DNA of 64,000 bases from Amphiscolops sp. MND2022 (lineage: Eukaryota): the NCBI GenBank assembly GCA_964187785.1, contig OZ076409.1, positions 70,744,001 through 70,808,000 of the forward strand, written 5' to 3'. Below the pieces are notes generated by a model that was not told where the DNA came from, searched no databases, and worked only from the letters and a program-made list of their open reading frames with translations. Shown here one piece after another: positions 1-24,700 of the stretch (positions are counted from its first letter, which is position 1; each line of letters begins with the position of its first letter). A program made the position numbers and the translations under genes.

Positions 1-404
1 TCAAGTGTGTTTTTGAGTATGTTTGTATTACTTTAGAATCAATTAGAGCTTCAAGAAAAGTTTGCCAACGACAAAAACTATGTCGTGATGATTCCGTTAT
101 TAGAATGATAGTTAACAAAAGGTTGATAAAGTTGATTTTTTACATTTCAAATGTGTCCCAAATGCCAGCAAACCTCTTTACCAAACAAATGGTATTGATT
201 GGATTGTATATAACAGCTAATAAAAGTTCAAATTGAATATTACGTTTCATTATGGAAGCTGAAACGTCAAATTATAGTTTAATTAACGTCAACGCCACAT
301 ACTTTACATCAACGCCCACCGTCCGTAGGCATGCCGAGGCATGCCTTTCGACGACGTATACCAAATTCCACCCACACAACACCCTCGAGCGCGGTAGCAG
401 CTAG
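1..404 (+). repeat. Family A unit, partial (3' end)
   Basis: Matches the last ~400 bp of A units such as 11193-11596 and ends in GCAGCTAG. Confidence 0.93.
289..357 (+). promoter_or_regulatory. Universal right-arm core: 2x TCAACGCC + 20-bp palindrome + TTCGACGACGT (putative protein-binding or origin/termination signal; representative of 36 copies)
   Basis: TCAACGCC at 289 and 309, and AGGCATGCC-GA-GGCATGCCT at 327-346. Conserved in all families. The function is inferred. Confidence 0.6.
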
Positions 405-407
405 GTG
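401..407 (+). other. Invariant junction/crossover core CTAGGTG (representative of 36)
   Basis: It is the only sequence shared by all A/A, A/B, B/A, B/B, A/C and C/A junctions (GCTAGGTG in 35, CCTAGGTG at 62900-62907). Confidence 0.9.
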
Positions 408-437
408 CGGGGGGGTAACCCCTACAAAGATATTGGA

Positions 438-461
438 GGATTCGGGTAGGGTCCTGAATCC
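438..461 (+). other. Left-arm hairpin with AGGG-containing loop (representative)
   Basis: GGATTCGGG-TAGGGT-CCTGAATCC. Equivalent stems with different sequence occur in all families. Confidence 0.8.
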
Positions 462-1935
462 GAGTTCAGTGCTGCCAGCTATCGTTAGGGATTTTAGAAA
501 ATTTTGCCGATCTCGTGATCTAACCGTAGGATTTTAAAGTTGGAGCGGCCCCCACCAGATTTTCCAAAGTTATTCGCCCCCCACCGGGTTCCAGCGTGAT
601 TGAAATATTTTGACGGGGTACACGGGCGACCGTTAGGGGTCATTTTGGGGGTAAAATTTATATCCGGTCGCATAACTTTTTTCCTGTTGGTTTAAAACTT
701 TGGGACCCTGCTAAAAGTTTCTTGACCGTGTTGCAGTGGCTCCGGAGGTCCAAACCAAATTTTTCTATCTTGAAGCTATCTCCAAGTACCCCCCCGCCCA
801 AACCGTTATTTTTCCGGAAACGCAGGTTTTTGACCCGGAAGGAGTCGTCTGAGCGCGGGGTCGTTAGGTGATGTATTGGGGACGGCCTTGAGACGAAGCG
901 GGGGACATGTAGTTTGCCGACCCCTGTTTACCCCCCGGACGGGAAATGACCGTTATTTGAGCGGGAAAAATGCCCCCCTCCACGTTTTACCGCTATTTCC
1001 GGTGTGAAGGAGTGGGAGTAGCGCGTCGGGTGTTATATAACAAAAGTAGGTTTAGACAAGGACCTATCGGAAATATGTAGTTTGGGACCCCCTGGACCAA
1101 CCCGTTAGCGGGAAATGGGGCTTCCGCCTCCTTTTTTTACTGCTAAAACCGTAAAATGGGCATTGAGGGGTAAATATCTCGTGAACGCGTGGAGCAATCG
1201 TGTCCATCACTACTACAAGGTTTCATACCCATGATATGGTGCCTTCAGGGGGGCAAACAGATTTCCGCTATCTATCACCGTTACCGACTTGGCCCCCCAG
1301 CCTAACCGCTATGTGACCGGAAATGTCACTTTTTGAGCCCAAAGGGTCGGTCCCAGCCGGGGAACGTTAGGTAACTTATTGTAGTACTCAATGAGACGAG
1401 TTGGGGGATGTAGTTTCAGTCACCCCCCGTTACCCCTTGGGACCGGAAATGACCGTTATGTGGGTAAAATTGCAATTTTTATACTTTTTCAAGTGTATTT
1501 AGGTGCTGAAGGAGTGGTAATAGGTGCTTGGACACTATATGATGTAATGGAGGTCGTGAGGAGAGCATTCGGAAATAACCGTTATGTTGACCCCAAAGTC
1601 CCCCTGGTACCGTTAACGACCGGAAATGGCCAAATTTTGTGTCTATTGGGTATAAATGTTTGGTATTTTATGGATAAAAGTACCTGGAAGGTGTTTTAAA
1701 GGCCTCCAGAAGTGAACATAGTCATGAAACCTTGTGGGGGGTAACGGTATATAGCACCGGAAGTCCAAACCGTTGGTCACAGAATAGGTTTTTTGGTTTC
1801 AAAATGTCTTTAGGCATAGTTTTGTGGGTTGAATCGTCATAATATCAACTAATACGGACTTTTTTCGGAAATAAAATTTTTTCACATTAGTTTCAGGGAC
1901 CTCCAATGCTTCAGTCAACATAACCGTTACATTTT

Positions 1936-1979
1936 GATAGCCTTTCAAGTTGACCTGGTGTCAACTTGGAAGGGCTATC
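1936..1979 (+). other. 44-bp bulged hairpin of A units (representative)
   Basis: GATAGCCTTT-CAAGTTGAC-CTGGT-GTCAACTTG-G-AAGGGCTATC, one per complete A unit. Confidence 0.85.
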
Positions 1980-2394
1980 CTTCTAAAATCGTTAATCAAG
2001 AGTGTTTTTGGGTAGGTATATGTTGCATTAGTACCAATTAGAGCTTCATCAACAGTTTGCCAACGGCAAGAACGATGTCGTGATAATTCCGTTATGAAAA
2101 TATTAGTTAACAAATTGTTTTCAAAGTTGATTTTTTCCATTAAAAATGTGTCCTAATGCCACCAAATTGAATAAAATAATAAATGGTATTGACTAAAACT
2201 AAATAACAATGAAAAAGAAGATCAACATTTTTATTAGGTCTCACAAAGCTGAAACCTCACGTTTTAGTTTAATTAACGTCAACGCCACATACTTTACATC
2301 AACGCCCACCGTCTGTGGGCATGCCGAGGCATGCCCTTCGACGACGTATACCAAACAATCTCCATATCTACACCCTAACCGCGGTAGCAGCTAG

Positions 2395-3704
2395 GTGCCG
2401 GGATTTCTATTCGATAAAGTATGTGGCGCGTGTGGGTAGGGTCCCTGGCGCGCTCTTGGGTATGGTGTTCACCAGCTAGGAAATAGGGGTCGATTTTTCG
2501 GGATCTCGTAAACTAGCCACACGATTTGGCTGAAATTTGGCACACGTACTCCCCTCGGCACGGTGAAGATGATTTCCTACTGACGTTTTTCCCGCAAAAT
2601 TTTTTTTGTTGTCCAAAATAACGGTTTTTGGGGTAAAATTTTGAATTTTTTTTAAATTTTATCTTATATCTCGCCACCGGTTTAGGCTAGCGCTTCAAAA
2701 CCCTGCTAAAGAAAGCTTGCAAACTGTCTCAGGAATGCGGTGTGAAATTTTCAGCTCAATCGGACTTAAACTCGGGGAGATATAGCGTTTTTCCGGAGCG
2801 GGGGGGTTTCATTTTTCTAACGGTCCAGCTTATCTTAGCCATTTTTTCGAAAATGTACTCGCCTAAAGACCTCCCCTGGCCGGTTTTATTCCCAGCAAAA
2901 CCATTTGGCCCTAAATACGGAGTTTCAGCGTTCCAGCATTCCCGGGCGAAAAGTTGTGGGACTTAGAAAAATTCAAAAATTTTCAAAAAAAATTTTTTCC
3001 GTTTTCCGCCCTCCCCCCCTAGGGGAAAAGACCCCCCAACCAGTAATTTGAGTGAATTCATGTGGAAAGGCCATGTTTAGACGAAAAAATTGCCGTTTAG
3101 AACGTCTTTATATCTCAACCTGAACTTGACTTATGAAGCTTTAAAGGTGATGTTTGGACGTGTGAAGCATGTAAAAAAAGGAATTTTTTTGATTTTATTT
3201 CATCAGAAAGTCATTGAATCACACGCTGTGAAGCCCAGAGCGTGGTTTCTAATAGTTTGGTATCGTTTAAACGCATTTTGGTGTCTTTTTACTCTGTTCA
3301 AAAACTTTTCTCCTGAAAATTAATGAATTTTGATTACTTTTCTTACTTTCCATTAATTTTTTTTTTATATTTTTACTTGAAACAGTTGAGTACATTCCAT
3401 CTCCCTTCCCGGGGGAGATGAGAATGTACTCGCAAAAAGCCGCGAACTACGGCCCATACCTTCCCGAGATACGCAGTATAAAGATAACATAATGGTCCAG
3501 ACATTTTAATGGAGTTGTATCTTGGTAATATGTCTGGATTTGCAGAAAAATCAGCACGTGCCATTTTATACCAAGTTGCTCGCAACGACAATTAATTTAA
3601 ATCAACGCCCCCCACAAAAATCAACGCCCCCCGTCCGTGGGCATGCCGAGGCATGCCCTTCGACGACGTGCACCAAAATATGCCCCGAGCGCGTTAGCAG
3701 CTAG
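2395..3704 (+). repeat. Family B unit, subtype B1 (1310 bp)
   Basis: Starts GTGCCGGGATTTC and its interior is unlike A. It is similar to 61618-62904 and 57062-58335 and carries the same right-arm core. Confidence 0.92.
3388..3431 (+). other. 44-bp bulged hairpin of B units (representative)
   Basis: GAGTACATTC-CATCTCCCT-TCCCG-GGGGAGATG-A-GAATGTACTC, one per B unit. Confidence 0.85.
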
Positions 3705-6700
3705 GTGCGGGGGGGAAACCCCTTCCCTTATCTTGGAGGATTCGGGTAGGGTCCTGAATCCGAGTTCAGTGCCGCCAGCTCTCAGTAGAAATCTGGGCAT
3801 TTTTTTGCGATCTCGTGATCTAACCATAGGATTTTAAAGTTGGAGCGGCCCCCACCAGATTTTCCAAAGTTATTCGCCCCCCACCGGGTTCCAGCGTGAT
3901 TGAAATATTTTGACGGGGTACACGGGCGACCGTTAGGGGTCATTTTAGGGGTAAAATTTATATAATGTCGCATAACTTTTTTCCTGTTGGATTAAAACTT
4001 TGGGACTCTGCTAAAAGTTTCTTGACCGTGTTGCAGGGGCCCCGGATTTCCAAACCAAATTTTTCTATCTTGAAGCTATCTCCAAGTACCCCCCCGCTCA
4101 AACCGTTATTTTTCCGGAAACGCCGGTTTTTGACCCGGAAGGAGTCGTCTGAGCGCGGGGTCGTTAGGTGATGTATTGGGGACGGCCTTGAGACGAAGCG
4201 GGGGATATATAGTTTGCCGACCCCAGTTCACCCCCCGCACGGGAAATGACCGTTATATGAGCGGGAAAAATGCCCCCCTCCACGTTTTACCGCTATTTCC
4301 GGTGTGAAGGAGTGGGAGTAGCGCGTCGGGTGTTATATAACAAAAGTAGGTTTAGACAAGGACCTATCGGAAACATGTAGTTTGGGACCCCCTGGACCAA
4401 CCCGTTAGCGGGAAATGGGGCTTCCGCCTCCTTTTTTTACTGCTAAAACCGTAAAATGGGCATTGAGGGGTAAATATCTCGTGAACGCGTGGAGCATCGT
4501 GTCCATCACTACTACAAGGTTTCATACCCATGATATGGTGCCTTCAGGGGGGCAAACAGATTTCCGCTATCTATCACCGTTACCGACTTGGCCCCCCAGC
4601 CTAACCGCTATGTGACCGGAAATGTCACTTTTTGAGCCTAAAGGGTCGGTCCCAGCCGGGGAACGTTAGGTAACTTATTGTAGTACTCAATGAGACGAGT
4701 AGGGGGATACAGTTTCAGTCACCCCCCGTTACCCCTTGGGACCGGAAATGACCGTTATGTGGGTAAAATTGCGATTTTTGTACTTTTTGAAGGGCAATTA
4801 GGTGCGGAAGGAGTGGTAATAGGTGCTTGGACACTATTTGAGGTAAGGGAGGACGTGAGGCGAGCATTCGGAAATAACCGTTATGTTGACCCCAAAGTCC
4901 CCCTGGTACCGTAAACGACCGGAAATGGTCAAATTTTGTGTCTATTGAGTACAAATGTTTGGTGTTTTATGAATAAAAGTACCTATTAGGTGTTTCGACG
5001 GTCTGCAGTAGTGAACATAGTCATGAAACCTTACGGGGGGTAACGGTATATAGCACCGGAAGTCCAAACCGTTGGAGACAGGATAGGTTTTTTGGTTTGA
5101 AAATGTCTTTCGGCGTACTTTTGTTGACTATTATGGACTATTTTGAAAAATTAAAGTTTTTCCATATAGTTTCAGAGACTCCGAAACCTCAACCAACATA
5201 ACCGTTACCTTATGATAGCCTTTCAAGTTGGCCTGGTGTCAACTTGGAGGGGCTATCCTTCAAAAATCGTTAATCAAGTGTGTTTTTGGGTATGTTTGTA
5301 TCAATTTAGAATCAATTAGAGCTTCAAGAAAAGTTTGCCAACGACAAAAACTATGTCGTGATGTTTCCGTTATTAGAATAGTAGTTAACAAACTGTTGAT
5401 AAAGTTGATTTTTTACATTTCGAATGTGTCCTAAAAGCCAGAAAACCTCTTTAACAAACAAATGGTATTGATTGAATAGTATATAACAGGTAATAAAAGT
5501 TCAAATTGGTTATTACGTTTCATTATTGAAGCTAAAACTTCATAACATAGTTTTATTAACGTCAACGCCACATACTTTACATCAACGCCCACCGTCTGTG
5601 GGCATGCCGAGGCATGCCCTTCGACGACGTATACCAAAAACATACCTAACGACGCCCGTACATCCCGGGCTAGGTGCGGGGGGGAAACCCCAACAAAATT
5701 TTTGGAGGATTCGGGTAGGGTCCTGAATCCGAGTTCAGTGCTGCCAGCTTTCGTTAAGAAAATTTGGATAGGATTCGGGATCTCGTGATCTAACCATAGG
5801 ATTTTAAAGTTGGAGCGGCCCCCACCAGATTTTCCGAAAATTAGCGCCCCCCACCGGGTTCCATACCCCGGAAAATTTTTTTCTGGCCACACGGGCGACC
5901 GTTAGGGGGTCATTTTAGGGGTAAAATTCATATTGGGCCACATAACTTTTTTTCTGTTGATTTAAAACTTTGGGACCCTGCTAAAAGTTTCTTGACCGTG
6001 TTGCAGGGGCCCCGGAGGTCTAAACCAAATTTTTCTATCTTGAAGCTATCTCCAAGTACCCCCCCGCCCAAAACGCTATTTTTCCGGAAACGCAGGTTTT
6101 TGACCCGGAAGGAGTCGTCTGAGCGCGGGGTCGTTAGGTGATGTATTGGGGACGGCCTTGAGACGAAGTGGGGGACATGCAGTTTGCCAACCCCAGTTTA
6201 CCCCCCGGACGGGAAGTGACCGTTATATGAGCGGGAAAAATGCCCCCCTCCACGTTTTACCGCTATTTCCGGTGTGAAGGAGTGGGAGTAGCGCGTCGGG
6301 TGCCATATATCAAAAGTAGGTTTAAACAAGGACCTATCGGAAACATGTGGTTTGGGACCCCCTGGACCAACCCGTTAGCGGGAAATGGGGCTTCCGCCTC
6401 CTTTTTTTACGGTTAAAAACGGAAAATGGGCATTGAGGGGTAAATATCTCGTGAACGCGTGGAGCTACGGTGTCCTTCACTACTACAAGGTTTCATACCC
6501 ATGATATGGTGCCTTCAGGGGGGCAAACAGATTTCCGCTATCTATCACCGTTACGGACTTGGCCCCCCAGCCTAACCGTTAAGTGACCGGAAATGTCATA
6601 TTTTGAGCCCAAAGGGTCGGTCTCAGCCAGGGAACGTTAGGTAACTTATTGTAGTACTCATTGAGACGAGTTGGGGGACATAGTTTCAGTCACCCCCCGT

Positions 6701-9700
6701 TACCCCTTAGGACCGGAAATGACCGTTATGTGAGTAAAATTGCCATTTTTGTCCTATTTGAAGGGCATTTATATGCGGAAGGAGTGGTAATAGGTGCTTG
6801 GACACTATATTAGGTAAGGGAGGACGTAAGGCAAGCATTCGGACATAACCGTTATGTTGACCCTAAAGTCCCCCTGGTACCGTAAACGACCGGAAATGGT
6901 CAAATTTTGTGTCTATTGGGTACAAATGTTTGGTATTTTGTAAATAAAAGTATCTATTAGGTGTTTCGACGGTTTGCAGTAGTGAACATAGTCATGAAAC
7001 CTTGTGGGGGGTAACGGTATATAGCACCGGAAATCCGAACCCTTGGAGACAGGATAGGTTTTTTGGTTTTAAAATGTCTTTCGGCGTAGTTTTGTCAACT
7101 ATTATGGACTATTTTTAAAAATTAAAGTTTTTCCATATAGTTTCAGCGACTCCGAAACCTCAACCAACATAACCGTTACCTTATGATAGCCTTTCAAGTT
7201 GGCCTGGTGTCAACTTGGAAGGGCTATCCTTCAAAAATCGTTAATCAAGTGTGTTTTTGGGTATGTTTTTATCATTTTAGAATCAATCAAAGCTCCAAGA
7301 AAAGTTTGCCAACGACAAAAACTATGTCGTGATGATTCCGTTATTAGAATGATGGTTAACAAAATGTTGATAAAGTTGATTTTTTACATTTCAAATGTGT
7401 CCTAAAAGCCAGAAAACCTCTTTACCAAAAAAATGGTATTGATTGAATTGTATATAACAGGTAATAAAAGTTCAAATTGATTATTACGTTTCATTATTCA
7501 AGCTAAAACTTCATAACATAGTTTAATTAACGTCAACGCCACACACTTTACATCAACGCACACCGTCTGTGGGCATGCCGAGGCATGCCCTTCGACGACG
7601 TATACCAAATACATACCCAAACGACGCCCGTACATCCCGGGCTAGGTGCGGGGGGGAAACCCCAACAAAATTTTTGGAGGATTCGGGTAGGGTCCTGAAT
7701 CCGAGTTCAGTGCTGCCAGCTTTCGTTAAGAAAATTTGGATAGGATTCGGGATCTCGTGATCTAACCATAGGATTTTAAAGTTGGAGCGGCCCCCACCAG
7801 ATTTTCCGAAAATTAGCGCCCCCCACCGGGTTCCATACCCCGGAAAATTTTTTTCTGGCCACACGGGCGACCGTTAGGGGGTCATTTTAGGGGTAAAATT
7901 CATATTGGGCCACATAACTTTTTTTCTGTTGATTTAAAACTTTGGGACCCTGCTAAAAGTTTCTTGACCGTGTTGCAGGGGCCCCGGAGGTCCAAACCAA
8001 CTTTTTCTATCTCGAAGCTATCTCCAAGTACCCCCCCGCCCAAAACGTTATTTTTCCGGAAACGCAGGTTTTTGACCCGGAAGGAGTCGTCTGAGCGCGG
8101 GGTCGTTAGGTGATGTATTGGGGACGGCCTTGAGACAAAGCGGGGGATATATAGTTTGCCGACCCCAGTTTACCCCCCGCACGGGAAATGACCGTTATAT
8201 GAGCGGGAAAAATGCCCCCCTCCACGTTTTACCGCTATTTCCGGTGTGAAGGAGTGGGAGTAGCGCGTCGGGTGTTATATAAAAAAAGTAGGTTTAGACA
8301 AAGACCTTTCGGAAACATGTAGTTTGGGACCCCCTGGACCAACCCGTTAGCGGGAAATGGGGCTTCCGCCTCCTTTTTTTACTGCTAAAACCGTAAAATG
8401 GGCATTGAGGGGTAAATATCTCGTGAACGCGTGGAGCAATCGTGTCCATCACTACTACAAGGTTTCATACCCATGATATGGTGCCTTCAGGGGGGCAAAC
8501 AGATTTCCGCTATCTATCACCGTTACCGACTTGGCCCCCCAGCCTAACCGCTATGTGACCGGAAATGTCACTTTTTGAGCCCAAAGGGTCGGTCCCAGCC
8601 GGGGAACGTTAGGTAACTTATTGTAGTACTCAATGAGACGAGTTGGGGGATATAGTTTCAGTCACCCCCCGTTACCCCTTGGGACCGGAAATGACCGTTA
8701 TGTGGGTAAAATTGCTATTTTTATACTTTTTGAAGGGCATTTAGGTGCGGAAGGAGTGGTAATAGGTGCTTGGACACTATATGATGTAAGGGAGGATATG
8801 AGGCGAGCATTCGGAAATAACCGTTATGCTGACCCTAAAGTCCCCCTGGTACCGTAAACGACCGGAAATGGTCAAATTTTGTGTTTATATGGTACAAATG
8901 TTTGGTATTTTGTAGATAAAAGTATCTATTAGGTGTTTCGACGGTCTGCAGTAGTGAACATACTCATGAAACCTTGTGGGGGGTAACGGTATATAGCACC
9001 GGAAGTCCAACCCGTTGGAGTCAGGATAGGCTTTTTGGTTTTAAAATGTCTTTCGGCGTACTTTTGTCGACTATTATGGACAATTTTTAAAAATTAAAGT
9101 TTTTCCATATCGTTTCAGAGACTCCCGGAAACCTCAACCAACATAACCGTTACCTTATGATAGCCTTTCAAGTTGGCCTGGTGTCAACTTGGAAGGGCTA
9201 TCCTTCAAAAATCGTTTATCAAGTGTGTTTTTGGGTATGTTTGTATCATTTTAGGACCAATTAGAGCTTCAAGAAAAGTTTGCCAACGACAAAAACTATG
9301 TGGTGATGATTCCGTTATTAGAATAATAGTTAACAAAATGTTGATAAAGTTGATTTTTTACATTTCAAATATGTCCTAAAAGCCAGAAAACCTCTTTACC
9401 AAACAAATGATATTGATTGAATTGTATATAATAGGTAATAAAAGTTCAAATTGATTATTACGTTTCATTATGGAAGCTAAAACTTCATAACATAGTTTAA
9501 TTAACGTCAACGCCACAAACTTTTTATCAACGCCCACCGTCTGTGGGCATGCCGAGGCATGCCCTTCGACGACGTATACCAATTTCCTTCCCAATCTACA
9601 CCCACCCGCGGTAGCAGCTAGGTGCGGGGGGGTAACCCCAACAAAATTTTTGGAGGATTCGGGTAGGGTCCTGAATCCGAGTTCAGTGCTGCCAGCTTTC

Positions 9701-12700
9701 GTTAAGAAAATTTGGATAGGATTCGGGATCTCGTGATCTAACCATAGGATTTTAAAGTTGGAGCGGCCCCCACCAGATTTTCCGAAAATTAGCGCCCCCC
9801 ACCGGGTTCCATACCCCGGAAAATTTTTTTCTGGCCACACGGGCGACCGTTAGGGGGTCATTTTAGGGGTAAAATTCATATTGGGCCACATAACTTTTTT
9901 TCTGTTGATTTAAAACTTTGGGACCCTGCTAAAAGTTTCTTGACCGTGTTGCAGGGGCCCCGGAGGTCCAAACCAAATTTTTCTATCTTGAAGCTATCTC
10001 CAAGTACCCCCCCGCCCAAACCGTTATTTTTCCGGAAACGCAGGTTTTTGACCCGGAAGGAGTCGTCTGAGCGCGGGGTCGTTAGGTGATGTATTGGGGA
10101 CGGCCTTGAGACGAAGCGGGGGACATGTAGTTTGCCGACCCCAGTTTACCCCCCGGACGGGAAATGACCGTTATTTGAGCGGGAAAAATGCCCCCCTCCA
10201 CGTTTTACCGCTATTTCCGGTGTGAAGGAGTGGGAGTAGCGCGTCGGGTGCCATATATCAAAAGTAGGTTTAGACAAGGATCTATCGGAAACATGTGGTT
10301 TGGGACCCCCTGGACCAACCCGTTAGCAGGAAATGGGGCTTCCGGCCCGTTTTTTTACGGTTAAAAACGGAAAATGGGCATTGAGGGGTAAATATCTCGT
10401 GAACGCGTGGAGCTACGGTGTCCATCACTACTACAAGGTTTCATACCCATGATATGGTGCCTTCAGGGTTGCAAACAGATTTCCGCTATCTATCACCGTT
10501 ACGGACTTGGCCCCCCAGCCTAACCGTTAAGTGACCGGAAATGTCATATTTTGAGCCCAAAGGGTCGGTCTCAGCCAGGGAACGTTAGGTAACTTATTGT
10601 AGTACTCATTGAGACGAGTTGGGGGACATAGTTTCAGTCACCCCCCGTTACCCCTTAGGACCGGAAATGACCGTTAGGTGAGTAAAATTGCCATTTTTGT
10701 CCTATTTGAAGGGCATTTAGATGCGGAAGGAGTGGTAATAGGTGCTTGGACACTATATTAGGTAAGGGAGGACGTGAGGCGAGCATTCGGAAATAACCGT
10801 TATGTTGACCCTAAAGTCCCCCTGGTACCGGAAGTGACCCGTAATGGTCAAATTTTGTGTTCAAAGGGTACAAATTTTTGGTATTTTGTAGATAAAAGTA
10901 TCTATTAGGTGTTTCGACGGTCTGCAGTCGTGAACATAGTCATGAAACCTTGTGGGGGGTAACGGTATATAGCACCGGAAGTCCAAGCCTTTGGAGACAG
11001 GATAAGTTTTTTGGTTTTAAAATGTCTTTCGGCCTACTTTTGTCGACTATTATGGTCTATTTTTGAAAAATAAAGATTTTCCATATAGTTTCAGAGACTC
11101 CGAAACCTCAACCAACAAAACCGTTACCTAATGATAGCCTTTCAAGTTGGCCTGGTGTCAACTTGGAAGGGCTATCCTTCAAAAATCATTAATCAAGTGT
11201 GTTTTTGAGTATGTTTGTATTACTTTAGAATCAATTAGAGCTTCAAGAAAAGTTTGCCAACGACAAAAACTATGTCGTGATGATTCCGGTATTAGAATAA
11301 TAGTTGAGAAAATGTTGATAAATTTGCTTTTTTACATTTCAAATGTGTCCTAAATGCCAGAAAACCTCTTTACCAAACAAATGGTATTGATTGAAATGTA
11401 TATAACAGCTAATAAAAGTTCAAATTGAATATTACATTTCATTTTGGAAGCTGAAACGTCATATTGTAGTTTAATTAACGTCAACGCCACATACTTTACA
11501 TCAACGCCCACCGTCCGTAGGCATGCCGAGGCATGCCTTTCGACGACGTATACCAAATTCCACCCACACAACACCCCCGAGCGCGGTAGCAGCTAGGTGC
11601 GGGGGGGAAACCCCAACAAAATTTTTGGAGGATTCGGGTAGGGTCCTGAATCCGAGTTCAGTGCTGCCAGCTTTCGTTAAGAAAATTTGGATAGGATTCG
11701 GGATCTCGTGATCTAACCATAGGATTTTAAAGTTGGAGCGGCCCCCACCAGATTTTCCGAAAATTAGCGCCCCCCACCGGGTTCCATACCCCGGAAAATT
11801 TTTTTCTGGCCACACGGGCGACCGTTAGGGGGTCATTTTAGGGGTAAAATTCATATTGGGCCACATAACTTTTTTTCTGTTGATTTAAAACTTTGGGACC
11901 CTGCTAAAAGTTTCGTGACCGTGTTGCAGGGGCCCCGGAGGTCCAAACCAAATTTTTCTATCTTGAAGCTATCTCCAAGTACCCCCCCGCCCAAAACGTT
12001 ATTTTTCCGGAAACGCAGGTTTTTGACCCGGAAGGAGTCGTCGGAGCGCGGGGTCGTTAGGTGATGTATTGGGGACGGCCTTGAGACGAAGTGGGGGACA
12101 TGCAGTTTGCCAACCCCAGTTTACCCCCCGGACGGGAAATGACCGTTATATGAGCGGGAAAAATGCCCCCCTCCACGTTTTACCGCTATTTCCGGTGTGA
12201 AGGAGTGGGAGTAGCGCGTCGGGTGCCATATATCAAAAGTAGGTTTAAACAAGGAACTATCGGAAACATGTGGTTTGGGACCCCCTGGACCAACCCGTTA
12301 GCGGGAAATGGGACTTCCGCCTCCTTTTTTTACGGTTAAAAACGGAAAATGGGCATTGAGGGGTAAATATCTCGTGAACGCGTGGAGCTACGGTGTCCTT
12401 CACTACTACAAGGTTTCATACCCATGATATGGTGCCTTCAGGGGGGCAAACAGATTTCCGCTATCTATCACCGTTACGGACTTGGCCCCCCAGCCTAACC
12501 GTTAAGTGACCGGAAATGTCATATTTTGAACCCAAAGGGTCGATCCTAGCCGGGCAACGTTAGGTAACAAATTGTAGTACTCATTGAGACGAGTTGGGGG
12601 ATCTAGTTTCAGTCACCCCCCGTTACCCCTTGAGACCGGAAATGACCGTTATGTGAGTAGAATTGCAATTTTTATACCTTTTGAAGGGCATTTAGGTGCG

Positions 12701-15700
12701 GAAGGAATGGTAATAGGTGCTTGGACACTATATGATGTAATGGAGGTCGTGAGGAGAGCATTCGGAAGTAACCGTTACGTTGACCCCAAAGTCCCCCTGG
12801 TACCGTTAACAACCGGAAATGGCCAAATTTTGTGTTTATAGGGTACAAATGTTTGGTATTTTATGGATAAAAGTACCTGGAAGGTGTTTTAAAGGCCTCC
12901 AGAAGTGAACATAGTCATGAAACTTTGTGGGGGGTAACGGTATATAGCACCGGAAGTCCAAACCGTTAGTTACAGAATAGGTTTTTTGGTTTCAAAATGT
13001 CTTTAGGCGTAGTTTTGTGGGTTGAATCGTCATAATATCAACTAATACGGACTTTTTTCGGAAATAAAATTTTTTCACATTAGTTTCAGGGACCTCCAAT
13101 GTTTCAGTCAACATAACCGTTACATTTTGATAGCCTTTCAAGTTGGCCTGGTGTCAACTTGGAAGGGCTATCCTTCTAAAATCGTTAATCAAGAGTGTTT
13201 TCGGGTAGGTGTATGTTGCATTAGTACCAATTAGAGCTTCATCAACAGTTTGCCAACGGCAAAAACGATGTCGTGATAATTCCGTTATAACAATATTAAT
13301 TAACAAATTGTTTCCAAAGTTGATTTTTTTCCATTCGAAATGTGTCCCAATGCCACCAAATTGAATAAAATAATAAATGGTATTGACTAAAACTAAATAA
13401 CATTGAAAAAGAAGCTCAACATTTTTAATAGGTCTCATTATGGAAGCTGAAACCTCACGTTTTAACTTAATTAACGTCAACGCCACATACTTTACATCAA
13501 CGCCCACCGTCTGTGGGCATGCCGAGGCATGCCCTTCGACGACGTATACCAATTACATATATATCTACACCCACCCGCGGTAGCAGCTAGGTGCGGGGGG
13601 GTAACCCCAACAAAATTTTTGGAGGATTCGGGTAGGGTCCTGAATCCGAGTTCAGTGCTGCCAGCTTTCGTTAAGAAAATTTGGATAGGATTCGGGATCT
13701 CGTGATCTAACCATAGGATTTTAAAGTTGGAGCGGCCCCCACCAGATTTTCCGAAAATTAGCGCCCCCCACCGGGTTCCATACCCCGGAAAATTTTTTTC
13801 TGGCCACACGGGCGACCGTTAGGGGGTCATTTTAGGGGTAAAATTCATATTGGGCCACATAACTTTTTTTCTGTTGATTTAAAACTTTGGGACCCTGCTA
13901 AAAGTTTCTTGACCGTGTTGCAAGGGCTCCGGAGGTCCAAACCAAATTTTTCTAGCTTGAAGCTATCTCCAAGTACCCCCCCGCCCAAAACGTTATTTTT
14001 CCGGAAACGCAGGTTTTTGACCCGGAAGGAGTAGTCGGAGCGCGGGGTCGTTAGGTGATGTATTGGGGACGGCCTTGAGACGAAGTGGGGGACATGCAGT
14101 TTGCCAACCCCAGTTTACCCCCCGGACGGGAAATGACCGTTATATGAGCGGGAAAAATTCCCCCCTCCACGTTTTACCGCTATTTCCGGTGTGAAGGAGT
14201 GGGAGTAGCGCGTCGGGTGCCATATATCAAAAGTAGGTTTAGACAAGGATCTATCGGAAACATGTGGTTTGGGACCCCCTGGACCAACCCGTTAGCAGGA
14301 AATGGGGCTTCCGGCCCGTTTTTTTACGGTTAAAAACGGAAAATGGGAATTGAGGGGTAAATATCTCGTGAACGCGTGGAGCTACGGTGTCCTTCACTAC
14401 TACAAGGTTTCATACCCATGATATGGTGCCTTCAGGGGGGCAAACAGATTTCCGCTATCTGTCACCGTTACGGACTTGGCCCCCCAGCCTAACCGTTAAG
14501 TGACCGGAAATGTCATATTTTGAGCCCAAAGGGTCGGTCTCAGCCAGGGAACGTTAGGTAACTTATTGTAGTACTCATTGAGACGAGTTGGGGGACATAG
14601 TTTCAGTCACCCCCCGTTACCCCTTAGGACCGGAAATGACCGTTATGTGAGTAAAATTGCCATTTTTGTCCTATTTGAAGGGCATTTAGATGCGGAAGGA
14701 GTGGTAATAGGTGCTTGGACACTATATGAGGTAAGGGAGGACGTGAGGCGAGCATTCAGACATAACCGTTATGTTGACCCTAAAGTCCCCCTGGTACCGT
14801 AAACGACCGGAAATGGTCAAATTTTGTGTCTATTGGGTACAAATGTTTGGTATTTTGTAAATAAAAGTATCTATTAGGTGTTTCGACGGTTTGCAGTAGT
14901 GAACATAGTCATGAAACCTTGTGGGGGGTAACGGTATATAGCACCGGAAATCCGAACCGTTGGAGACAAGATAGGTTTTTTGGTTTTAAAATGTCTTTCG
15001 GCGTACTTTTGTCGACTATTATGGACTTTTTTTGGAAAATAAAGTTTTTCCATATAAATTCAGAGACTCCGAAACCTCAACCAACATAACCGTTACCTTA
15101 TGATAGCCTTTCAAGTTGGCCTGGTGTCAACTTGGAAGGGCTATCCTTCAAAAATCGTTAATCAAGTGTGTTTTTGGGTATGTTTTTATCATTTTAGAAT
15201 CAATTAAAGCTCCAAGAAAAGTTTGCCAACGACAAAAACTATGTCGTGATGATTCCGTTATTAGAATGATGGTTAACAAAATGTTGATAAAGTTGATTTT
15301 TTACATTTCAAATGTGTCCTAAAAGCCAGAAAACCTCTTTACCAAAAAAATGGTATTGATTGAATTGTATATAACAGGTAATAAAAGTTCAAATTGATTA
15401 TTACGTTTCATTATTCAAGCTAAAAATTCATAACATAGTTTAATTAACGTCAACGCCACATACTTTACATCAACGCCCACCGTCTGTGGGCATGCCGAGG
15501 CATGCCCTTCGACGACGTATACCAAATACATACCTAACGACGCCCGTACATCCCGGGCTAGGTGCGGGGGGGAAACCCCAACAAAATTTTTGGAGGATTC
15601 GGGTAGGGTCCTGAATCCGAGTTCAGTGCTGCCAGCTTTCGTTAAGAAAATTTGGATAGGATTCGGGATCTCGTGATCTAACCATAGGATTTTAAAGTTG

Positions 15701-18700
15701 GAGCGGCCCCCACCAGATTTTCCGAAAATTAGCGCCCCCCACCGGGTTCCAGCGTGATTGAAATATTTTGACGGGGTACACGGGCGACCGTTAGGGGGTC
15801 ATTTTAGGGGTAAAATTCATATTGGGCCACATAACTTTTTTTCTGTTGATTTAAAACTTTGGGACCCTGCTAAAAGTTTCTTGACCGTGTTGCAAGGGCT
15901 CCGGAGGTCCAAACCAAATTTTTCTAGCTTGAAGCTATCTCCAAGTACCCCCCCGCCCAAAACGTTATTTTTCCGGAAACGCAGGTTTTTGACCCGGAAG
16001 GAGTCGTCTGAGCGCGGGGTCGTTAGGTGATGTATTGGGGACGGCCTTGAGACGAAGCGGGGGACAAGTAGTTTGCCGACCCCAGTTTACCCCCCGGACA
16101 GGAAATGACCGTTATATGAGCGGGAAAAATGCCCCCCTCCACGTTTTACCGCTATTTCCGGTGTGAAGGAGTGGAAGTAGCGCGTCGGGTGCCATATATC
16201 AAAAGTAGGTTTAGACAAGGACCTATCGGAAACATGTGGTTTGGGACCCCCTGGACCAACCCGTTAGCGGGAAATGGGGCTTCCGCCTCCTTTTTTTACT
16301 GCTAAAACCGTAAAATGGGCATTGAGGGGTAAATATCTCGTGAACGCGTGGAGCTACAGTGTCCATCACTACTACAAGGTTTCATACCCATGATATGGTG
16401 CCTTCAGGGGGGCAAACAGATTTCCGCTATCTATCACCGTTACCGACTTGGCCCCCCAGCCTAACCGCTATGTGACCGGAAATGTCACTTTTTGAGCCCA
16501 AAGGGTCGGTCCCAGCCGGGGAACGTTAGGTAACTTATTGTAGTACTCATTGAGACGAGTTGGGGGATATAGTTTCAGTCAACCCCCGTTACCCCTTGGG
16601 ACCGGAAATGACCGTTATGTGGGTAAATTTGCAATTTTTATACTCTTTGAAGTGCATTTAGGTGCGGAAGGAGTGGTAATAGGTGCTTGGACACTATATG
16701 AAGGAAGGGAGGACGTGAGGCGAGCATTTGGAAATAACCGTTATGTTGACCCTAAAGTCCCCCTGGTACCGGAAGTGACCCGTAATGGTCAAATTTTGTG
16801 TTCAAAGGGTACAAATGTTTGGCATTTTGTAGATAAAAGTATCTATTAGGTGTTTCGACGGTCTGCAGTCGTGAACATAGTCATGAAAACTTGTGGGGGG
16901 TAACGGTATATTGCACCGGAAGTCCAAACCTTTGGAGACAGGATAAGTTTTTTGGTTTTAAAATGTCTTTCGGCCTACTTTTGTCGACTATTATGGTCTA
17001 TTTTTCAAAAATAGAGTTTTTCCATATAGTTTCAGAGACTCCGAAACCTCAACCAACATAACCGTTACCTTATGATAGCCTTTCAAGTTGGCCTGGTGTC
17101 AACTTGGAAGGGCTATCCTTCAAAAATCATTAATCAAGTGTTTTTTTGAGTATGTTTGTATTACTTTAGAATCAGTTAGAGCTTCAAGAAAAGTTTGCCA
17201 ACGACAAAAACTATGTCGTGATGATTCCGTTATTAGAATAATGACTAAGAAAATGTTGATAAATTTGATTTTTTACATTTCAAATGTGTCCTAAATGCCA
17301 GAAAACCTCTTTACCAATTAAATGGTATTGAGTGAATTGTATATAACAGCTAATAAAAGTTCAAATTGAATATTACGTTTCATTTTGGAAGCTGAAACGT
17401 CATATTGAAGTTTAATTAACGTCAACGCCACATACTTTACATCAACGCCCACCGTCCGTAGGCATGCCGAGGCATGCCTTTCGACGACGTATACCAAATT
17501 CCACCCACACAACACCCCCGAGCGCGGTAGCAGCTAGGTGCGGGGGGGAAACCCCAACAAAATTTTTGGAGGATTCGGGTAGGGTCCTGAATCCGAGTTC
17601 AGTGCTGCCAGCTTTCGTTAAGAAAATTTGGATAGGATTCGGGATCTCGTGATCTAACCATAGGATTTTAAAGTTGGAGCGGCCCCCACCAGATTTTCCG
17701 AAAATTAGCGCCCCCCACCGGGTTCCATACCCCGGAAAATTTTTTTCTGGCCACACGGGCGACCGTTAGGGGGTCATTTTAGGGGTAAAATTCATATTGG
17801 GCCACATAACTTTTTTTCTGTTGATTTAAAACTTTGGGACCCTGCTAAAAGTTTCTTGACCGTGTTGCAGGGGCCCCGGAGGTCCAAACCAAATTTTTCT
17901 ATCTTGAAGCTATCTCCAAGTACCCCCCCGCCCAAACCGTTATTTTTCCGGAAACGCAGGTTTTTGACCCGGAAGGAGTCGTCTGAGCGCGGGGTCGTTA
18001 GGTGATGTATTGGGGACGGCCTTGAGACGAAGCGGGGGACATGTAGTTTGCCGACCCCAGTTTACCCCCCGGACGGGAAATGACCGTTATTTGAGCGGGG
18101 AAAATGCCCCCCTCCACGTTTTACCGCTATTTCCGGTGTGAAGGAGTGGGAGTAGCGCGTCGGGTGTTATATAACAAAAGTAGGTTTAGACAAGGACCTA
18201 TCGGAAACATGTAGTTTGGGACCCCCTGGACCAACCCGTTAGCGGGAAATGGGGCTTCCGCCTCCTTTTTTTACTGCTAAAACCGTAAAATGGGCATTGA
18301 GGGGTAAATATCTCGTGAACGCGTGGAGCAATCGTGTCCATCACTACTACAAGGTTTCATACCTATGATATGGTGCCTTCAGGGGGGCAAACAGATTTCC
18401 GCTATCTATCGCCGTTACCGACTTGGCCCCCCAGCCTAACCGCTATGTGACCAGAAATGTCACTTTTTGAGCCCAAAGGGTCGGTCCCAGCCGGGGAACG
18501 TTAGGTAACTTATTGTAGTACTCATTGAGACGAGTTGGGGGATATAGTTTCAGTCACCCCCGTTACCCCTTAGGACCGGAAATGACCGTTATGTGGGTAA
18601 AGTTGCAATTTTTGAACTTTTTGAAGGGCATTTAGATGCGGAAGGAGTGGTAATAGGTGCTTGGACACTAAATGAAGGAAGGGAGGACGTGAGGCGAGCA

Positions 18701-21700
18701 TTCGGAAATAACCGTTATGTTGACCCTAAAGTCTCCCTGGTACCGGAAGTGACCGGAAATTGTCAAATTTGGTGTTTTTAGGGTACAAATGTTCGGTGTT
18801 TTATGGATTAAAGTACAGGTTAGGTGTTTTCACGGTCTGCAGTAGTGAACATAGTCATGAAAACTTGTGGGGGGTAACGGTATATAGCACCGGAAGTCCA
18901 AACCGTTGGAGACAGGATAAGTTTTTTGGTTTTAAAATGTCTTTCGGCCTACTTTTGTTGACTATTATGGACTATTTTTGGAAAATAAAGTTTTTCCAAA
19001 TAGTTTCAGAGACTCCGAAACCTCAACCAACATAACCGTTACCTTATTATAGCCTTTCAAGTTGGCCTGGTGTCAACTTGGAAGGGCTATCCTTCAAAAA
19101 TCATTAATCAAGTGTGTTTTTGAATTTGTTTGTATTACTTTAGAATCAATTAGAGCTTCAAGAAAAGATTGCCAACGACAAAAACTATGTCGTTATGATT
19201 CCGTTATTGGAATAATAGTTAACAAAACTATTGATAAAGTTGATTTTTTACATTTTAAATGTGTTCTAAATGCCAGAACACCTCTTTACCAAACAAATGG
19301 AATTGATTGAATTGTATATAGAAGCTAATAAAAGTTCAAATTGAATATTACATTTCATTATGCAAGCTGAAACGTCAAATTATAGTTTAATTAACGTCAA
19401 CGCCACATACTTTACATCAACGCCCACCGTCCGTAGGCATGCCGAGGCATGCCTTTCGACGACGTATACCAAATTCCACCCACACAACACCCTCGAGCGC
19501 GGTAGCAGCTAGGTGCGGGGGGGAAACCCCAACAAAATTTTTGGAGGATTCGGGTAGGGTCCTGAATCCGAGTTCAGTGCTGCCAGCTTTCGTTAAGAAA
19601 ATTTGGATAGGATTCGGGATCTCGTGATCTAACCATAGGATTTTAAAGTTGGAGCGGCCCCCACCAGATTTTCCGAAAATTAGCGCCCCCCACCGGGTTC
19701 CAGCGTGATTGAAATATTTTGACGGGGTACACGGGCGACCGTTAGGGGTCATTTTGGGGGTAAAATTTATATCCGGTCGCATAACTTTTTTCCTGTTGGT
19801 TTAAAACTTTGGGACCCTGCTAAAAGTTTCTTGACCTTGTTGCAGTGGCTCCGGAGGTCCAAACCAAATTTTTCTATCTTGAAGCTATCTCCAAGTACCC
19901 CCCCGCCCAAAACGTTATTTTTCCGGAAACGCAGGTTTTTGACCCGGAAGGAGTCGTCGGAGCGCGGGGTCGTTAGGTGATGTATTGGGGACGGCCTTGA
20001 GACGAAGTGGGGGACATGCAGTTTGCCAACCCCAGTTTACCCCCCGGACGGGAAATGACCGTTATATGAGCGGGAAAAATGCCCCCCTCCACGTTTTACC
20101 GCTATTTCCGGTGTGAAGGAGTGGGAGTAGCGCGTCGGGTGCCATATATCAAAAGTAGGTTTAAACAAGGACCTATCGGAAACATGTGGTTTGGGACCCC
20201 CTGGACCAACCCGTTAGCGGGAAATGGGGCTTCCGCCTCCTTTTTTTACGGTTAAAAACGGAAAATGGGCATTGAGGGGTAAATATCTCGTGAACGCGTG
20301 GAGCTACGGTGTCCTTCACTACTACAAGGTTTCATACCCATGATATGGTGCCTTCAGGGGGGCAAACAGATTTCCGCTATCTATCACCGTTACGGACTTG
20401 GCCCCCCAGCCTAACCGTTAAGTGACCGGAAATGTCATATTTTGAGCCCAAAGGGTCGGTCTCAGCCAGGGAACGTTAGGTAACTTATTGTAGTACTCAT
20501 TGAGACGAGTTGGGGGACATAGTTTCAGTCACCCCCCGTTACCCCTTAGGACCGGAAATGACCGTTATGTGAGTAAAATTGCCATTTTTGTCCTATTTGA
20601 AGGGCATTTAGATGCGGAAGGAGTGGTAATAGGTGCTTGGACACTGTATGATGTAAGGGAGGACGTTAGGCGAGCATTCGGACATAACCGTTATGTTGAC
20701 CCTAAAGTCCCCCTGGTACCGTAAACGACCGGAAATGGTCAAATTTTGTGTCTATTGGGTACAAATGTTGGGTATTTTGTAGATAAAAGTATCTATTAGA
20801 TGTTTCGACGGTCTGCAGTAGTGAACATAGTCATGAAACCTTGTGGGGGGTAACGGTATATAGCACCGGAAGTCCAAACCGTTGGTGACAGGATAGGTTT
20901 TTTGGTTTTAAAACGTCTTTCGGCGTACCTTTGTCGACTATTAAGGACTATTTTTAAAAATTAAAGATTTTCCATATAGTTTCAGAGACTCCGAAACCTC
21001 AACCAACATAACCGTTACCTCATGATAGCCTTTCAAGTTGGCCTGGTGTCAACTTGGAAGGGCTATCCTTCAAAAATCGTCAATCAAGTGTGTTTTTGGG
21101 TATGTTTGTATCATTTTAGAATCAATTAGAGCTTCAAGAAAAGTTTCCCAACGACAAAAACTAATTCGCGAAGATTCCGTTACTAGAATTATAGTTAGCA
21201 AATTGTTGAGAAAAATGTTTTTTTTCCAAATTAAATGTGTCCTAAATGCCAGGAAACCTATTTAACTAACAAATGGTATTGATTGGAATGTATGTAACAG
21301 ATTTATAAAAGTTCAAATTGATTATTAAGTTTCATTATGGAAGCTGAAACGTAATATTTTAGTTTAATTAACGTCAACGCCACATACTTTTTATCAACGC
21401 CCACCGTCTGTGGGCATGCCGAGGCATGCCCTTCGACGACGTATACCAAATACATACCTAACGACGCCCGTACATCCCGGGCTAGGTGCGGGGGGGAAAC
21501 CCCAACAAAATTTTTGGAGGATTCGGGTAGGGTCCTGAATCCGAGTTCAGTGCTGCCAGCTTTCGTTAAGAAAATTTGGATAGGATTCGGGATCTCGTGA
21601 TCTAACCATAGGATTTTAAAGTTGGAGCGGCCCCCACCAGATTTTCCGAAAATTAGCGCCCCCCACCGGGTTCCATACCCCGGAAAATTTTTTTCTGGCC

Positions 21701-24700
21701 ACACGGGCGACCGTTAGGGGGTCATTTTAGGGGTAAAATTCATATTGGGCCACATAACTTTTTTTCTGTTGATTTAAAACTTTGGGACCCTGCTAAAAGT
21801 TTCTTGGCCGTGTTGCAGGGGCCCCGGAGGTCCAAACCAAATTTTTCTATCTTGAAGCTATCTCCAAGTACCCCCCCGCCCAAAACGTTATTTTTCCGGA
21901 AACGCAGGTTTTTGACCCGGAAGGAGTCGTCTGAGCGCGGGGTCGTTAGGTGATGTTTTGGGGACGGCCTTGAGACGAAGCGGGGGACATGTAGTTTGCC
22001 GACCCCTGTTTACCCCCCGGACGGGAAATGACCGTTATTTGAGCGGGAAAAATGCCCCCCTCCACGTTTTACCGCTATTTCCGGTGTGAAGGAGTGGGAG
22101 TAGCGCGTCGGGTGCCATATATCAAAAGTAGGTTTAGACAAGGACCTATCAGAAACATGTGGTTTTGGACCCCCTGGACCAACTCGTTAGCGGGAAATGG
22201 GGCTTCCGCCTCCTTTTTTTACTGCTAAAACCGTAAAATGGGCATTGAGGGGTAAATATCTCGTGAACGCGTGGAGCTACAGTGTCCATCACTACTACAA
22301 GGTTTCATACCCATGATATGGTGCCTTCAGGGGGGCAAACAGATTTCCGCTATCTATCACCGTTACCGACTTGGCCCCCCAGCCTAACCGCTATGTGACC
22401 GGAAATGTCACTTTTTGGGCCCAAAGGGTCGGTCCCAGCCGGGGAACGTTAGGTAACTTATTGTAGTACTCAATGAGACGAGTTGGGGGATATAGTTTCA
22501 GTCACCCCCCGTTACCCCTTAGGACCGGAAATGACCGTTATGTGGGTAAATTGGCATTTTTTGTACTTTTTGAAGGGCATTTAGATGCGGAAGGAGTGGT
22601 AATAGGTGCTTGGACACTATATGAAGGAAGGGAGGACGTGAGGCGAGCATTCGGAAATAACCGTTATGCTGACCCTAAAGTCCCCCTGGTACCGGAAGTG
22701 ACCCGTAATGGTCAAATTCTGTGTTTAAAGGGTACAAATGTTTGGTGTTTTATGGATAACAGTACCTATTAGGTGTTTCGACGGTCTGCAGTCGTGAACA
22801 TAGTCATGAAACCTTGTGGGGGGTAACGGTATATATCACCGAAAGTCCAAACCGTTGGAGACAGGATACGTTTTTTGGTTTTAAAATGTCTTTCGGCCTA
22901 CTTTTGTCGACTATTATGGACTATTTTTGAAAAATAAAGTTTTTCCATATAGTTTCAGAGACTCCGAAACCTCAACCAACATAACCGTTACCTTATGATA
23001 GCCTTTCAAGTTGGCCTGGTGTCAACTTGGAAGGGCTATCCTTCAAAAGTCATTAATCAAGTTTGTTTTTGAGTTTGTTTGTTTTACTTTAGAATCAATT
23101 AGAGCTTCAGGAAAAGTTTGAAAACGATAAAAACTATGTCGTGATGATTCCGTTATTAGAATAATAGTTAAAAAATTTTGATAAAATTGATTTTTTACAT
23201 TTCAAATCTGTCCTAAATGCCAGAAAACCTCTTTACCAAACAAATGGTATTGATTGAATTGTATAAAACAGCTAATAAAAGTTCAAATTGAATATTACGT
23301 TTCATTATGGAAGCTGAAACGTCATATTATAGATTCATTACTGTCAACGCCACATACTTTACATCAACGCCCACCGTCCGTAGGCATGCCGAGGCATGCC
23401 TTTCGACGACGTATACCAAATTCCACCCACACAACACCCCCGAGCGCGGTAGCAGCTAGGTGCGGGGGGGAAACCCCAACAAAATTTTTGGAGGATTCGG
23501 GTAGGGTCCTGAATCCGAGTTCAGTGCTGCCAGCTTTCGTTAAGAAAATTTGGATAGGATTCGGGATCTCGTGATCTAACCATAGGATTTTAAAGTTGGA
23601 GCGGCCCCCACCAGATTTTCCGAAAATTAGCGCCCCCCACCGGGTTCCATACCCCGGAAAATTTTTTTCTGGCCACACGGGCGACCGTTAGGGGGTCATT
23701 TTAGGGGTAAAATTCATATTGGGCCACATAACTTTTTTTCTGTTGATTTAAAACTTTGGGACCCTGCTAAAAGTTTCTTGACCGTGTTGCAGTGGCTCCG
23801 GAGGTCCAAACCAAATTTTTCTATCTCGAAGCTATCTCCAAGTACCCCCCCGCCCAAAACGTTATTTTTCCGGAAACGCAGGTTTTTGACCCGGAAGGAG
23901 TCGTCTGAGCGCGGGGTCGTTAGGTGATGTTTTGGGGACGGCCTTGAGACGAAGTGGGGGACATGTAGTTTGCCGACCCCAGTTTACCCCCCGGACGGGA
24001 AATGACCGTTATATGAGCGGGAAAAATGCCCCCTTCCACGTTTTACCGCTATTTCCGGTGTGAAGGAGTGGGAGTAGCGCGTCGGGTGCCATATATCAAA
24101 AGTAGGTTCAGACAAGGACCTATCGGAAACATGTAGTTTGGGACCCCCTGGACCAACCCGTTAGCGAGAAATGGGGCTTCCGGCCCGTTTTTTTACGGTT
24201 AAAAACGGAAAATGTGCATTGAGGGGTAAATATCTCGTGAACGCGTGGAGCTACGGTGTCCATCACTACTACAAAGTTTCATACCCATGATATGGTGCCT
24301 TCAGGGGGGCAAACAGATTTCCGCTATCTATCACCGTTACGGACTTGGCCACCCAGCCTAACCGCTATGTGACCGGAAATGTCACTTTTTGAGCCCAAAG
24401 GGTCGGTCTCAGCCAGGGAACGTTAGGTAACTTATTGTAGTACTCATTGAGACGAGTTGGGGGATACAGTTTCAGTCACCCCCCGTTACCCCTTGGGACC
24501 GGAAATGACCGTTATGTGGGTAAAATTGCAATTTTTGTGCTTTTTCGAGGGCATTTAGGTGCGGAAGGAGTAGTAATAGGTGCTTGGACACTATATGATG
24601 ATAGGGAGGACGTGAGGCGAGCATTCAAAAATAACCGTTATGTTGACCCCAAAGTCCCCCTGGTACCGGAAGTGACCCGTAACGGTCAAATTTTGTGTTT

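Follow-up and report, generated by a model that had tools for sequence, protein, structure and literature searches.

The window analysed here, a 64,000-nucleotide stretch (C1:70744001-70808000) of a 1.07 Gb eukaryotic assembly, belongs to a new-looking variant of Helitron-like transposons with a real, conserved hairpin module of predicted function. Its units are non-autonomous Helitron-like elements of the form 5'-GTG…CTRG-3', and each of the 35 complete units contains exactly one such hairpin, as the first-pass annotation had proposed; 26 of these hairpins are A-type (the single family C unit included) and nine are B-type. That annotation had staked its claim of a functional signal on two things, a same-shape hairpin in the other families carrying the 3' core and a substitution rate in the hairpin below that of its flanks. 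Both were found, the former as same-sized hairpins of unrelated sequence in 13/13 passenger families and the latter in column counts and subfamily identities, and the hairpin is therefore likely a conserved functional signal.

Arrays, element ends and autonomous partners

The 35 units are arranged head to tail and comprise 25 of family A (~1.98 kb), nine of family B (~1.28-1.3 kb) and one of family C (F2; 1389 bp). All finish with a common core palindrome and the CTAG/GTG junction (Table 1). The longest ORF returned by an ORF scan of the window is <=181 aa.

Table 1. Features located in the window, with positions counted from its first nucleotide
Feature	Position	Strand	Remarks
Window as a piece of a mixed head-to-tail array	1..64000	+	array also contains autonomous elements
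Family A non-autonomous unit, 5'-GTG to CTAG-3'	405..2394	+	ends fixed by array edges
5'-subterminal hairpin around GGG(T/C)AGGG(T/C)CC motif	438..461	+	present where units start; also in a distant metagenomic relative
A-type hairpin	1936..1979	+	~19 bp, one extra 3' base (register ambiguous), 5-nt loop; 25 family-A copies
3'-subterminal core palindrome	2310..2343	+	two short direct repeats before it; 4962 exact pattern matches genome-wide
Unit junction CTAG/GTG	2391..2397	+	3' end of one element is the target of the next
Family B non-autonomous unit	2395..3704	+	~1.3 kb
B-type hairpin	3388..3431	+	10 bp + 3' bulge + 9 bp, 5-nt loop; 9 copies
B-type variant (B2)	36362..36404	+	4-nt loop; bulged G or shifted register
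Family C (F2) unit	51710..53098	+	1389 bp
Unit C hairpin, A-type sequence	52746..52790	+	symmetrical 20+5+20, T:T mismatch, no bulge
B-type variant (B3)	61304..61349	+	longer inner stem, outer-stem mismatches

The array to which the window belongs extends over about 6 Mb of C1 (~70.455-76.487 Mb; both edges read, interior sampled), and four samples flanking it contained zero junctions. Smaller arrays on C1, C2, C4, C5, C6, C7, C8 and C10 likewise consist of mixed families of GTG…CTRG elements in a single orientation. Segmentation of ~0.86 Mb of fetched sequence yielded 353 units, of which 339 are passengers and 14 autonomous; together they make up 17 families. Genome-wide, the core pattern has 4962 exact matches and the hairpin patterns have 1758 (A-type) and 2541 (B-type), with 0 matches for the reversed controls.

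Plain tandem duplication was rejected as the origin of the window array, since adjacent A units (mean identity 0.906, maximum 0.957, n=20) are no closer to each other than other A pairs (mean 0.898, maximum 0.997, n=305). Units stack at junctions in mixed family order and are recombinant mosaics, the first crossovers between unit pairs falling mostly in the 5' module; the mosaic structure is also visible when window positions 405-1500 are compared with other units. Family A carries an old internal duplication (unit nt 383-566 and 886-1066, 69% identity) and, at window positions 600-1930, is dense in the repeated short motifs CCGTTA, ACCGGAA and TGTAGTTT, which we take to resemble MYB-, ETS- and ZNF143-type sites.

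The 3' termini of the 353 segmented units read CTAG (337), CTGG (15) or TTAG (1), counts that are partly built into the segmentation rule. The right edges of arrays and solo copies are independent of that rule, and there the closing CTAG or CTGG of the last unit gives way to unrelated DNA. Where arrays or solo copies begin, a host CTNG precedes the first GT(G) in 9/9 readable edges (CTTG 4, CTAG 2, CTGG 2, CTCG 1), a count that leaves out the unreadable 5' end C1:421001, the edges C1:23959001 (plus strand) and C1:3590001, where the first junctions look like unit ends, and position 5184 of C1:11615001, a regex match without unit homology. As first insertions lie 3' of a host CTNG, each element recreates its own target, and because it ends in this CTNG-type target, arrays could grow at their junctions. 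Targeting by the four bases alone was rejected, given that 2800 internal CTAG/CTGG sites go with only three odd-length passenger-family units. Since neighbours are no more alike than other units and internal CTRG sites are almost uninterrupted, more than four bases would direct insertion, and we infer that it occurs preferentially at existing junctions, guided by something beyond the tetranucleotide. The 3'-subterminal core palindrome is likely a terminator or a Rep-binding site. The 5'-subterminal hairpin motif is retained in a distant relative with 26% protein identity (L141:58-82).

A genome search with Helitron domains revealed many open frames of 2.3-2.5 kaa inside the passenger arrays, with the orientation of the passengers. 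The autonomous elements obtained by segmentation measure 12-17 kb. Their RepHel ORFs are 2345-2603 aa long. Pfam scans matched PF14214 (Helitron_like_N) and PF05970 (PIF1) in 6/6 long ORFs and a C-terminal GIY-YIG domain in 5/6, one of these matches scoring under the curated cut-off. The HUH-Rep motifs could be aligned, with two extra residues before the HUH motif, and comparison with the Helraiser structure 7lcc gave a match in the helicase only (E 1.4e-5). The autonomous elements encode a divergent HUH-Rep and Pif1 helicase, mostly with a C-terminal GIY-YIG domain. Many intact RepHel ORFs of 2.3-2.6 kaa, again mostly with GIY-YIG, are found in the C1 array (~70.455-76.487 Mb) and in the smaller arrays.

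A second ORF (ORF2; 280-390 aa) is present in 11/14 autonomous units; the four copies scanned gave zero Pfam matches. By its resemblance to Atlas entries it is likely an OB-fold ssDNA-binding-like protein, an assignment that serves as a lead. The copies at L049:6223-7389 (-) and L143:11089-12231 appear OB-fold/POT1/MEIOB-like by Atlas features and contain a Cys cluster. Some F5 elements have an extra ORF upstream of RepHel (L048:3783-4658, minus strand), for which Pfam gave a weak DUF459 match alone and whose motifs presumably recall an SGNH/GDSL hydrolase.

Passengers and autonomous elements have up to 770-900 bp at the 5' end in common, up to 97.8% identical; in the first family B unit (2395..3704), nt 338-756 of the 5' module are 79% identical to an autonomous element. 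The 3' 150 bp of the passengers are common to F11, F13 and F15 and are weakly shared with most F5. Among public proteins we found 48 homologs, down to 24% identity, several of them with GIY-YIG or OTU domains. The homologs, too, have the two extra residues before the HUH motif, and in a quick tree they group on a long branch apart from the canonical-motif Helitrons of this genome, a separation that holds against three canonical-motif rows, with no named reference Helitrons in the tree. Seven rows of this tree were cut by a fallback rule or have no clear HUH anchor; one row, L121, was probably cut wrongly, and part of the rows from this genome are left out. In one distant metagenomic relative the 5' hairpin motif is retained, and a bulged hairpin of 46 nt comes after an ORF2 homolog (E 8e-10). 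Viral contigs yielded no relative of the Rep region. The packaging site suggested by the first-pass annotation finds no support, the 10 ORFs scanned giving zero capsid-like Pfam matches.

Conservation and geometry of the hairpin

All five hairpins first described from the window were recovered at their positions, and each folds far better than its dinucleotide shuffles (RNA z -3.6 to -6.8; <=1/200 shuffles as good). They end ~260-415 bp before the junction, in agreement with the ~250-420 bp originally given, and the plus strand folds about as well as the minus strand. Their description as conserved islands also held: in 26 A units (25 in the window and one running past its end) 3/44 hairpin columns are variable, compared with 73/152 and 58/152 in the two flanks and 116/903 in the 5' body. 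Pairwise comparison of dereplicated subfamilies gave identities of 0.80-0.87 for the hairpin, against 0.28-0.73 for the flanking bins; the 5' arm served as the anchor of these comparisons and is therefore favoured by them. The best matches between a hairpin and the rest of its own unit are 7-11 nt long, none of them at the termini. Rfam gave 0 matches in the window at the gathering score.

The A and B hairpins are unrelated in sequence, and B parses as 10+9+5+9+1+10, both as initially reported. The 44-bp geometry thought to be shared by the two fits B; in A the position of the bulge is ambiguous, the minimum free energy (MFE) fold placing it at 11+8, and lengths (~39-50 nt) and loops (3-7 nt) vary among units. 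The bulged base, once described as a purine, can be A, G, T or C. Scoring the bulge in every copy, as had been recommended, showed that the extra 3' base is kept in 215/224 B-type and 71/92 A-type units but is lost from the A-type family F2 (absent in 21/21) and the B-type family F6 (absent in 9/9 matched). The hairpin of unit C had been listed as a variant of the same geometry with a sequence of its own; it aligns as A-type and has a symmetrical, unbulged stem. Preservation of pairing in the variants stood for B2, with its shorter loop, and for the longer inner stem of B3, but not for the outer stem of B3, which has mismatches. A bulge is thus common but dispensable, and a strict shared geometry is not the rule.

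Sequence-tolerant recognition, another part of the original proposal, fits poorly with these stems: 9/20 and 8/19 pairs never change within the two types, so that the arms are conserved in sequence and not just in shape, while the loops are variable and the stem centre is tolerant. Cells with intact pairing make up 93.7% and 94.4%, and double changes occur at 4 pairs in each type. Of 500 shuffles, 0 and 1 attained the covariation score of the two types, with relatedness uncontrolled, and the number of pairs with double changes was equalled by 34 and 31 of 500 shuffles, i.e., it is not clearly above chance. Covariation is present in these hairpin types and is modest.

Beyond the window, a typed stem lies within 1.1 kb of the 3' end in 338/339 passenger units. 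In each of the 13 passenger families, one stand-out hairpin of 40-50 nt beats every shuffle (a single representative of each family was set against 5-12 shuffles), the family-best local DNA fold ranging from -12.6 to -19.5 kcal/mol and the second-best from -6.8 to -10.6. F9 had been considered a hairpin-less family, a view overturned by energy-based folding; among six solo copies, one is without a strong hairpin (-9.0). The stems fall into five unrelated sequence types (A, B, D, E and F). Hairpin type and 3' end class vary independently, B occurring with five different 3' ends, and the distance from hairpin to 3' end ranges from ~250 to 1025 bp.

Hairpins of types A and B are absent from the 14 autonomous units; apparent autonomous elements ending in the same core plus a B hairpin were an artefact of missed F5 junctions. 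The autonomous units bear other, more bulged hairpin types, some of which lie 225-730 bp short of the end. Repeated bulged hairpins (types G, H, I and K; periods of 52-77 bp, ~290 bp for K) form clusters downstream of stop codons and close to the 3' end in non-coding parts of F5 (L036-L037, L049-L050 and L093-L094) and F15 (L090-L091). Type G shows paired changes, and Rfam returned zero matches at E 1 in the six autonomous-element loci scanned.

Possible roles of the hairpin

The consulted portion of the Helraiser study (PMC5876387) describes transposition of the plus strand and inactivity of unprimed ssDNA circles, and leaves minus-strand priming open. Bulged hairpins in ssDNA serve as recognition signals for the HUH enzymes of REP/IS608 systems, according to the part of PMC8266576 consulted, and rolling-circle plasmids convert ssDNA at single-strand origins (sso) with host enzymes, according to that of PMC5714925. 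As the displaced plus strand is the element's own ssDNA state, these precedents lead us to favour, tentatively and with somewhat less than even confidence, a cis-acting plus-strand fold in the ssDNA intermediate that serves second-strand priming or protein loading. Rep would nick after CTNG at the 5' end of the element, the plus strand would be peeled off, and CTRG would be joined to GTG to form a circle, which could then be transferred into another CTNG site, preferably at an existing junction. The internal stem would fold in the displaced plus strand, offer a candidate loading point for priming or for ssDNA-binding proteins, and so help convert the peeled-off circle to double-stranded DNA.

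A benefit in cis is the simplest reading of the retention of one stem in every one of these non-coding passenger families, which are otherwise unrelated, and the independence of hairpin type from end type argues against a helper-specific Rep site. In favour of a plus-strand fold, G.T exceeds A.C on the plus strand by 77 to 17 cells, and singleton substitutions (C>T 92 and A>G 60 versus G>A 94 and T>C 88) show no excess of G.T-making changes; the OB-fold likeness of ORF2, a lead, also speaks for it. By distinct positions, however, the excess is slight (12 to 9), and a fixed-register count for B gave 2 to 8. The absence of types A and B from autonomous units, the variable distance to the 3' end, the about equal folding of both strands, the number of doubly changed pairs and the solo copy with no strong hairpin count against this reading, and our literature search returned no earlier example of a Helitron with a eukaryotic sso. 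A broader proposal, in which an undescribed clade with Rep-Pif1-GIY-YIG and OB-fold proteins stacks through IS91-style CTNG targeting and the interchangeable hairpin is a eukaryotic single-strand origin, is doubtful as a whole.

An RNA product or a protein site would account just as well for the strong sequence conservation within a type. Ranked close behind the plus-strand DNA fold is a possible, if rather uncertain, role as an RNA stem-loop in a transcript from the shared 5' module, either as a small-RNA precursor or as a 3'-end, termination or export element. Conserved arms with variable loops and a tolerant stem centre would suit such a product, as would the tolerance of G.U-type pairs. 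In autonomous elements, moreover, hairpins often lie close after a stop codon (~7 nt in F13, ~58 nt in F15 and 35-133 nt in F5), and in the distant relative L143 one follows the ORF2 homolog by ~50 nt. Typed hairpins are skewed toward the stop, with 71/33/23/4 in successive quartiles of the stop-to-next-start interval, although these counts are non-independent. Stems of ~20 bp are short for Drosha/Dicer substrates, and a canonical pre-miRNA has a basal stem below a ~22 bp duplex. A Drosha-type precursor finds no support in the predicted structures, as no stable lower stem appears in 5 plus-strand folds. Poly(A) signals near the hairpins are inconsistent in spacing, Rfam matches are lacking in the regions scanned, and the arms have weak local matches alone in the 14 autonomous units, with no near-perfect complement there. 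A trans-acting small RNA, furthermore, would not need to persist in every family, and since no ORF in the passenger representatives exceeds 118 aa there would be no mRNA to regulate.

Could the stems be neutral relics, that is, inverted repeats made by template switching in the course of rolling-circle copying that persist through shielding by pairing and arm-to-arm correction? Quasi-palindrome correction can make double changes in one step and could thus have yielded those observed here, and the tandem 52-77 bp units in which the hairpins of autonomous elements sit would be in keeping with such an origin. We nevertheless consider it unlikely. A-type arms persist at 0.83-0.87 identity where the flanks are near alignment noise (0.28-0.6), and there is exactly one stand-out stem in each of the 13 families. 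Correction should also erase the bulge, yet 286/316 units keep it; because indels are rare, this last point weighs only weakly against a relic.

It is similarly improbable that the palindrome is a double-stranded inverted site for a dimeric protein of the host or the element, with the hairpin as a by-product of symmetry. About half of the pairs never vary, as might be expected of a binding site, and a motif resembling the A 5' arm occurs alone in F13 (L045:1477-1524) and F11 (L047:2236-2290), 408-447 bp from the end, where it scores weakly (24-26 of 40-46) and the full hairpin is absent. However, the spacer between the half-sites varies with matched expansions of C/G runs, stems lengthen by paired changes at the foot, and five unrelated sequences occupy the same slot. 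The attC-like site proposed in the first-pass annotation, which would swap unit halves by site-specific recombination and for which bulged stems and mosaic units might speak, is very improbable: first crossovers fall near the hairpin (~100 bp) in 15/635 B-family and 0/197 A-family pairs, as scored by the first switch per pair only, two families have dispensed with the bulge, mobilisation is the work of an HUH-helicase, and the GTT and AAC triplets in A are ordered opposite to those of attC cores.

Relation to known systems

The step from ssDNA to a dsDNA circle, left open in the consulted portion of the Helraiser work (PMC5876387), now has a candidate signal that can be deleted and swapped. 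It is unusual for a eukaryotic rolling-circle element to have a four-base target resembling that of IS91 and to restore this target itself. The system has produced a stack of ~6 Mb and ~5000 core-bearing units genome-wide, with intact ORFs of 2.3-2.6 kaa. Self-stacking may be regarded as a safe-harbour strategy and as a natural model for targeted HUH insertion.

Our literature search, the scope of which stopped short of Repbase, the HELIANO supplements and subscription journals, retrieved no GTG…CTRG elements inserted after CTNG in mixed multi-megabase stacks, and no internal one-per-element hairpin in Helitrons. In the portions consulted, the descriptions of Helitron1/HLE1 (PMC11417382, PMC5876387) agree with the present elements in the HUH-Rep and Pif1 domains in one ORF, the 3' CTRR, the subterminal palindrome and the non-autonomous derivatives; an RPA-like gene downstream, comparable to the ORF2 lead, and tandem arrays of Helitrons have also been described. 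Unlike HLE1 (PMC11417382, portion consulted), the elements begin with GTG rather than TC and insert after CTNG rather than between A and T. They also differ in that the core palindrome ends ~50 nt before the end, the protein carries GIY-YIG at its C terminus and two additional residues ahead of the HUH motif, mixed families stack at junctions, and an extra internal hairpin of 40-50 nt is present. HELIANO's unclassified clusters may include the present clade.

Likenesses to Helitron2/Helentron/HLE2, again as far as the consulted portions go, are the hairpins near both ends, an added endonuclease domain and, in some relatives, OTU (PMC11417382, PMC3627910, PMC5148889). Sphagnum HelenSM92, an HLE2 element, has GIY-YIG but also TIRs and TT sites (PMC5148889, portion consulted). 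The present elements, in contrast, have no T/T target and end in CTRG. At E 0.01, neither DUF6570 nor an APE endonuclease was among the Pfam matches, DUF6570 being perhaps outside the Pfam copy used.

The IS91 family consists of small bacterial HUH transposases without a helicase. In the consulted portion of PMC13181058, IS91-like elements move by HUH rolling-circle transposition into an end-adjacent tetranucleotide target (CTTG, GTTC or CTCG), and have a similar tetranucleotide at the other end and subterminal imperfect palindromes. The elements described here are eukaryotic, 12-17 kb long when autonomous and strongly junction-preferring, and their Rep is fused to a Pif1 helicase and GIY-YIG; they share the target logic of IS91 but are no members of that family. 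Bulged ssDNA hairpins act as cis signals in REP/TnpA(REP), IS608, plasmid sso and phage ssi, according to the consulted parts of PMC8266576 and PMC5714925. The present stem differs from these in lying 250-1025 bp inside the element, with no conserved guide tetranucleotide at its foot and with a dispensable bulge.

Targeted Helitrons in Paramecium, GIY-YIG in one HLE2 family and Helitron tandem arrays were thus already known from the portions of the literature consulted. The third-clade Helitrons of Paramecium (PMC13085455) and the centromeric Helitrons of Meloidogyne (PMC13404089), compared by description from the consulted parts of these reports, show targeted insertion, strict orientation or clustering. 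Those elements are tied to telomeric or centromeric repeats, whereas the elements of the present arrays stack on each other's ends.
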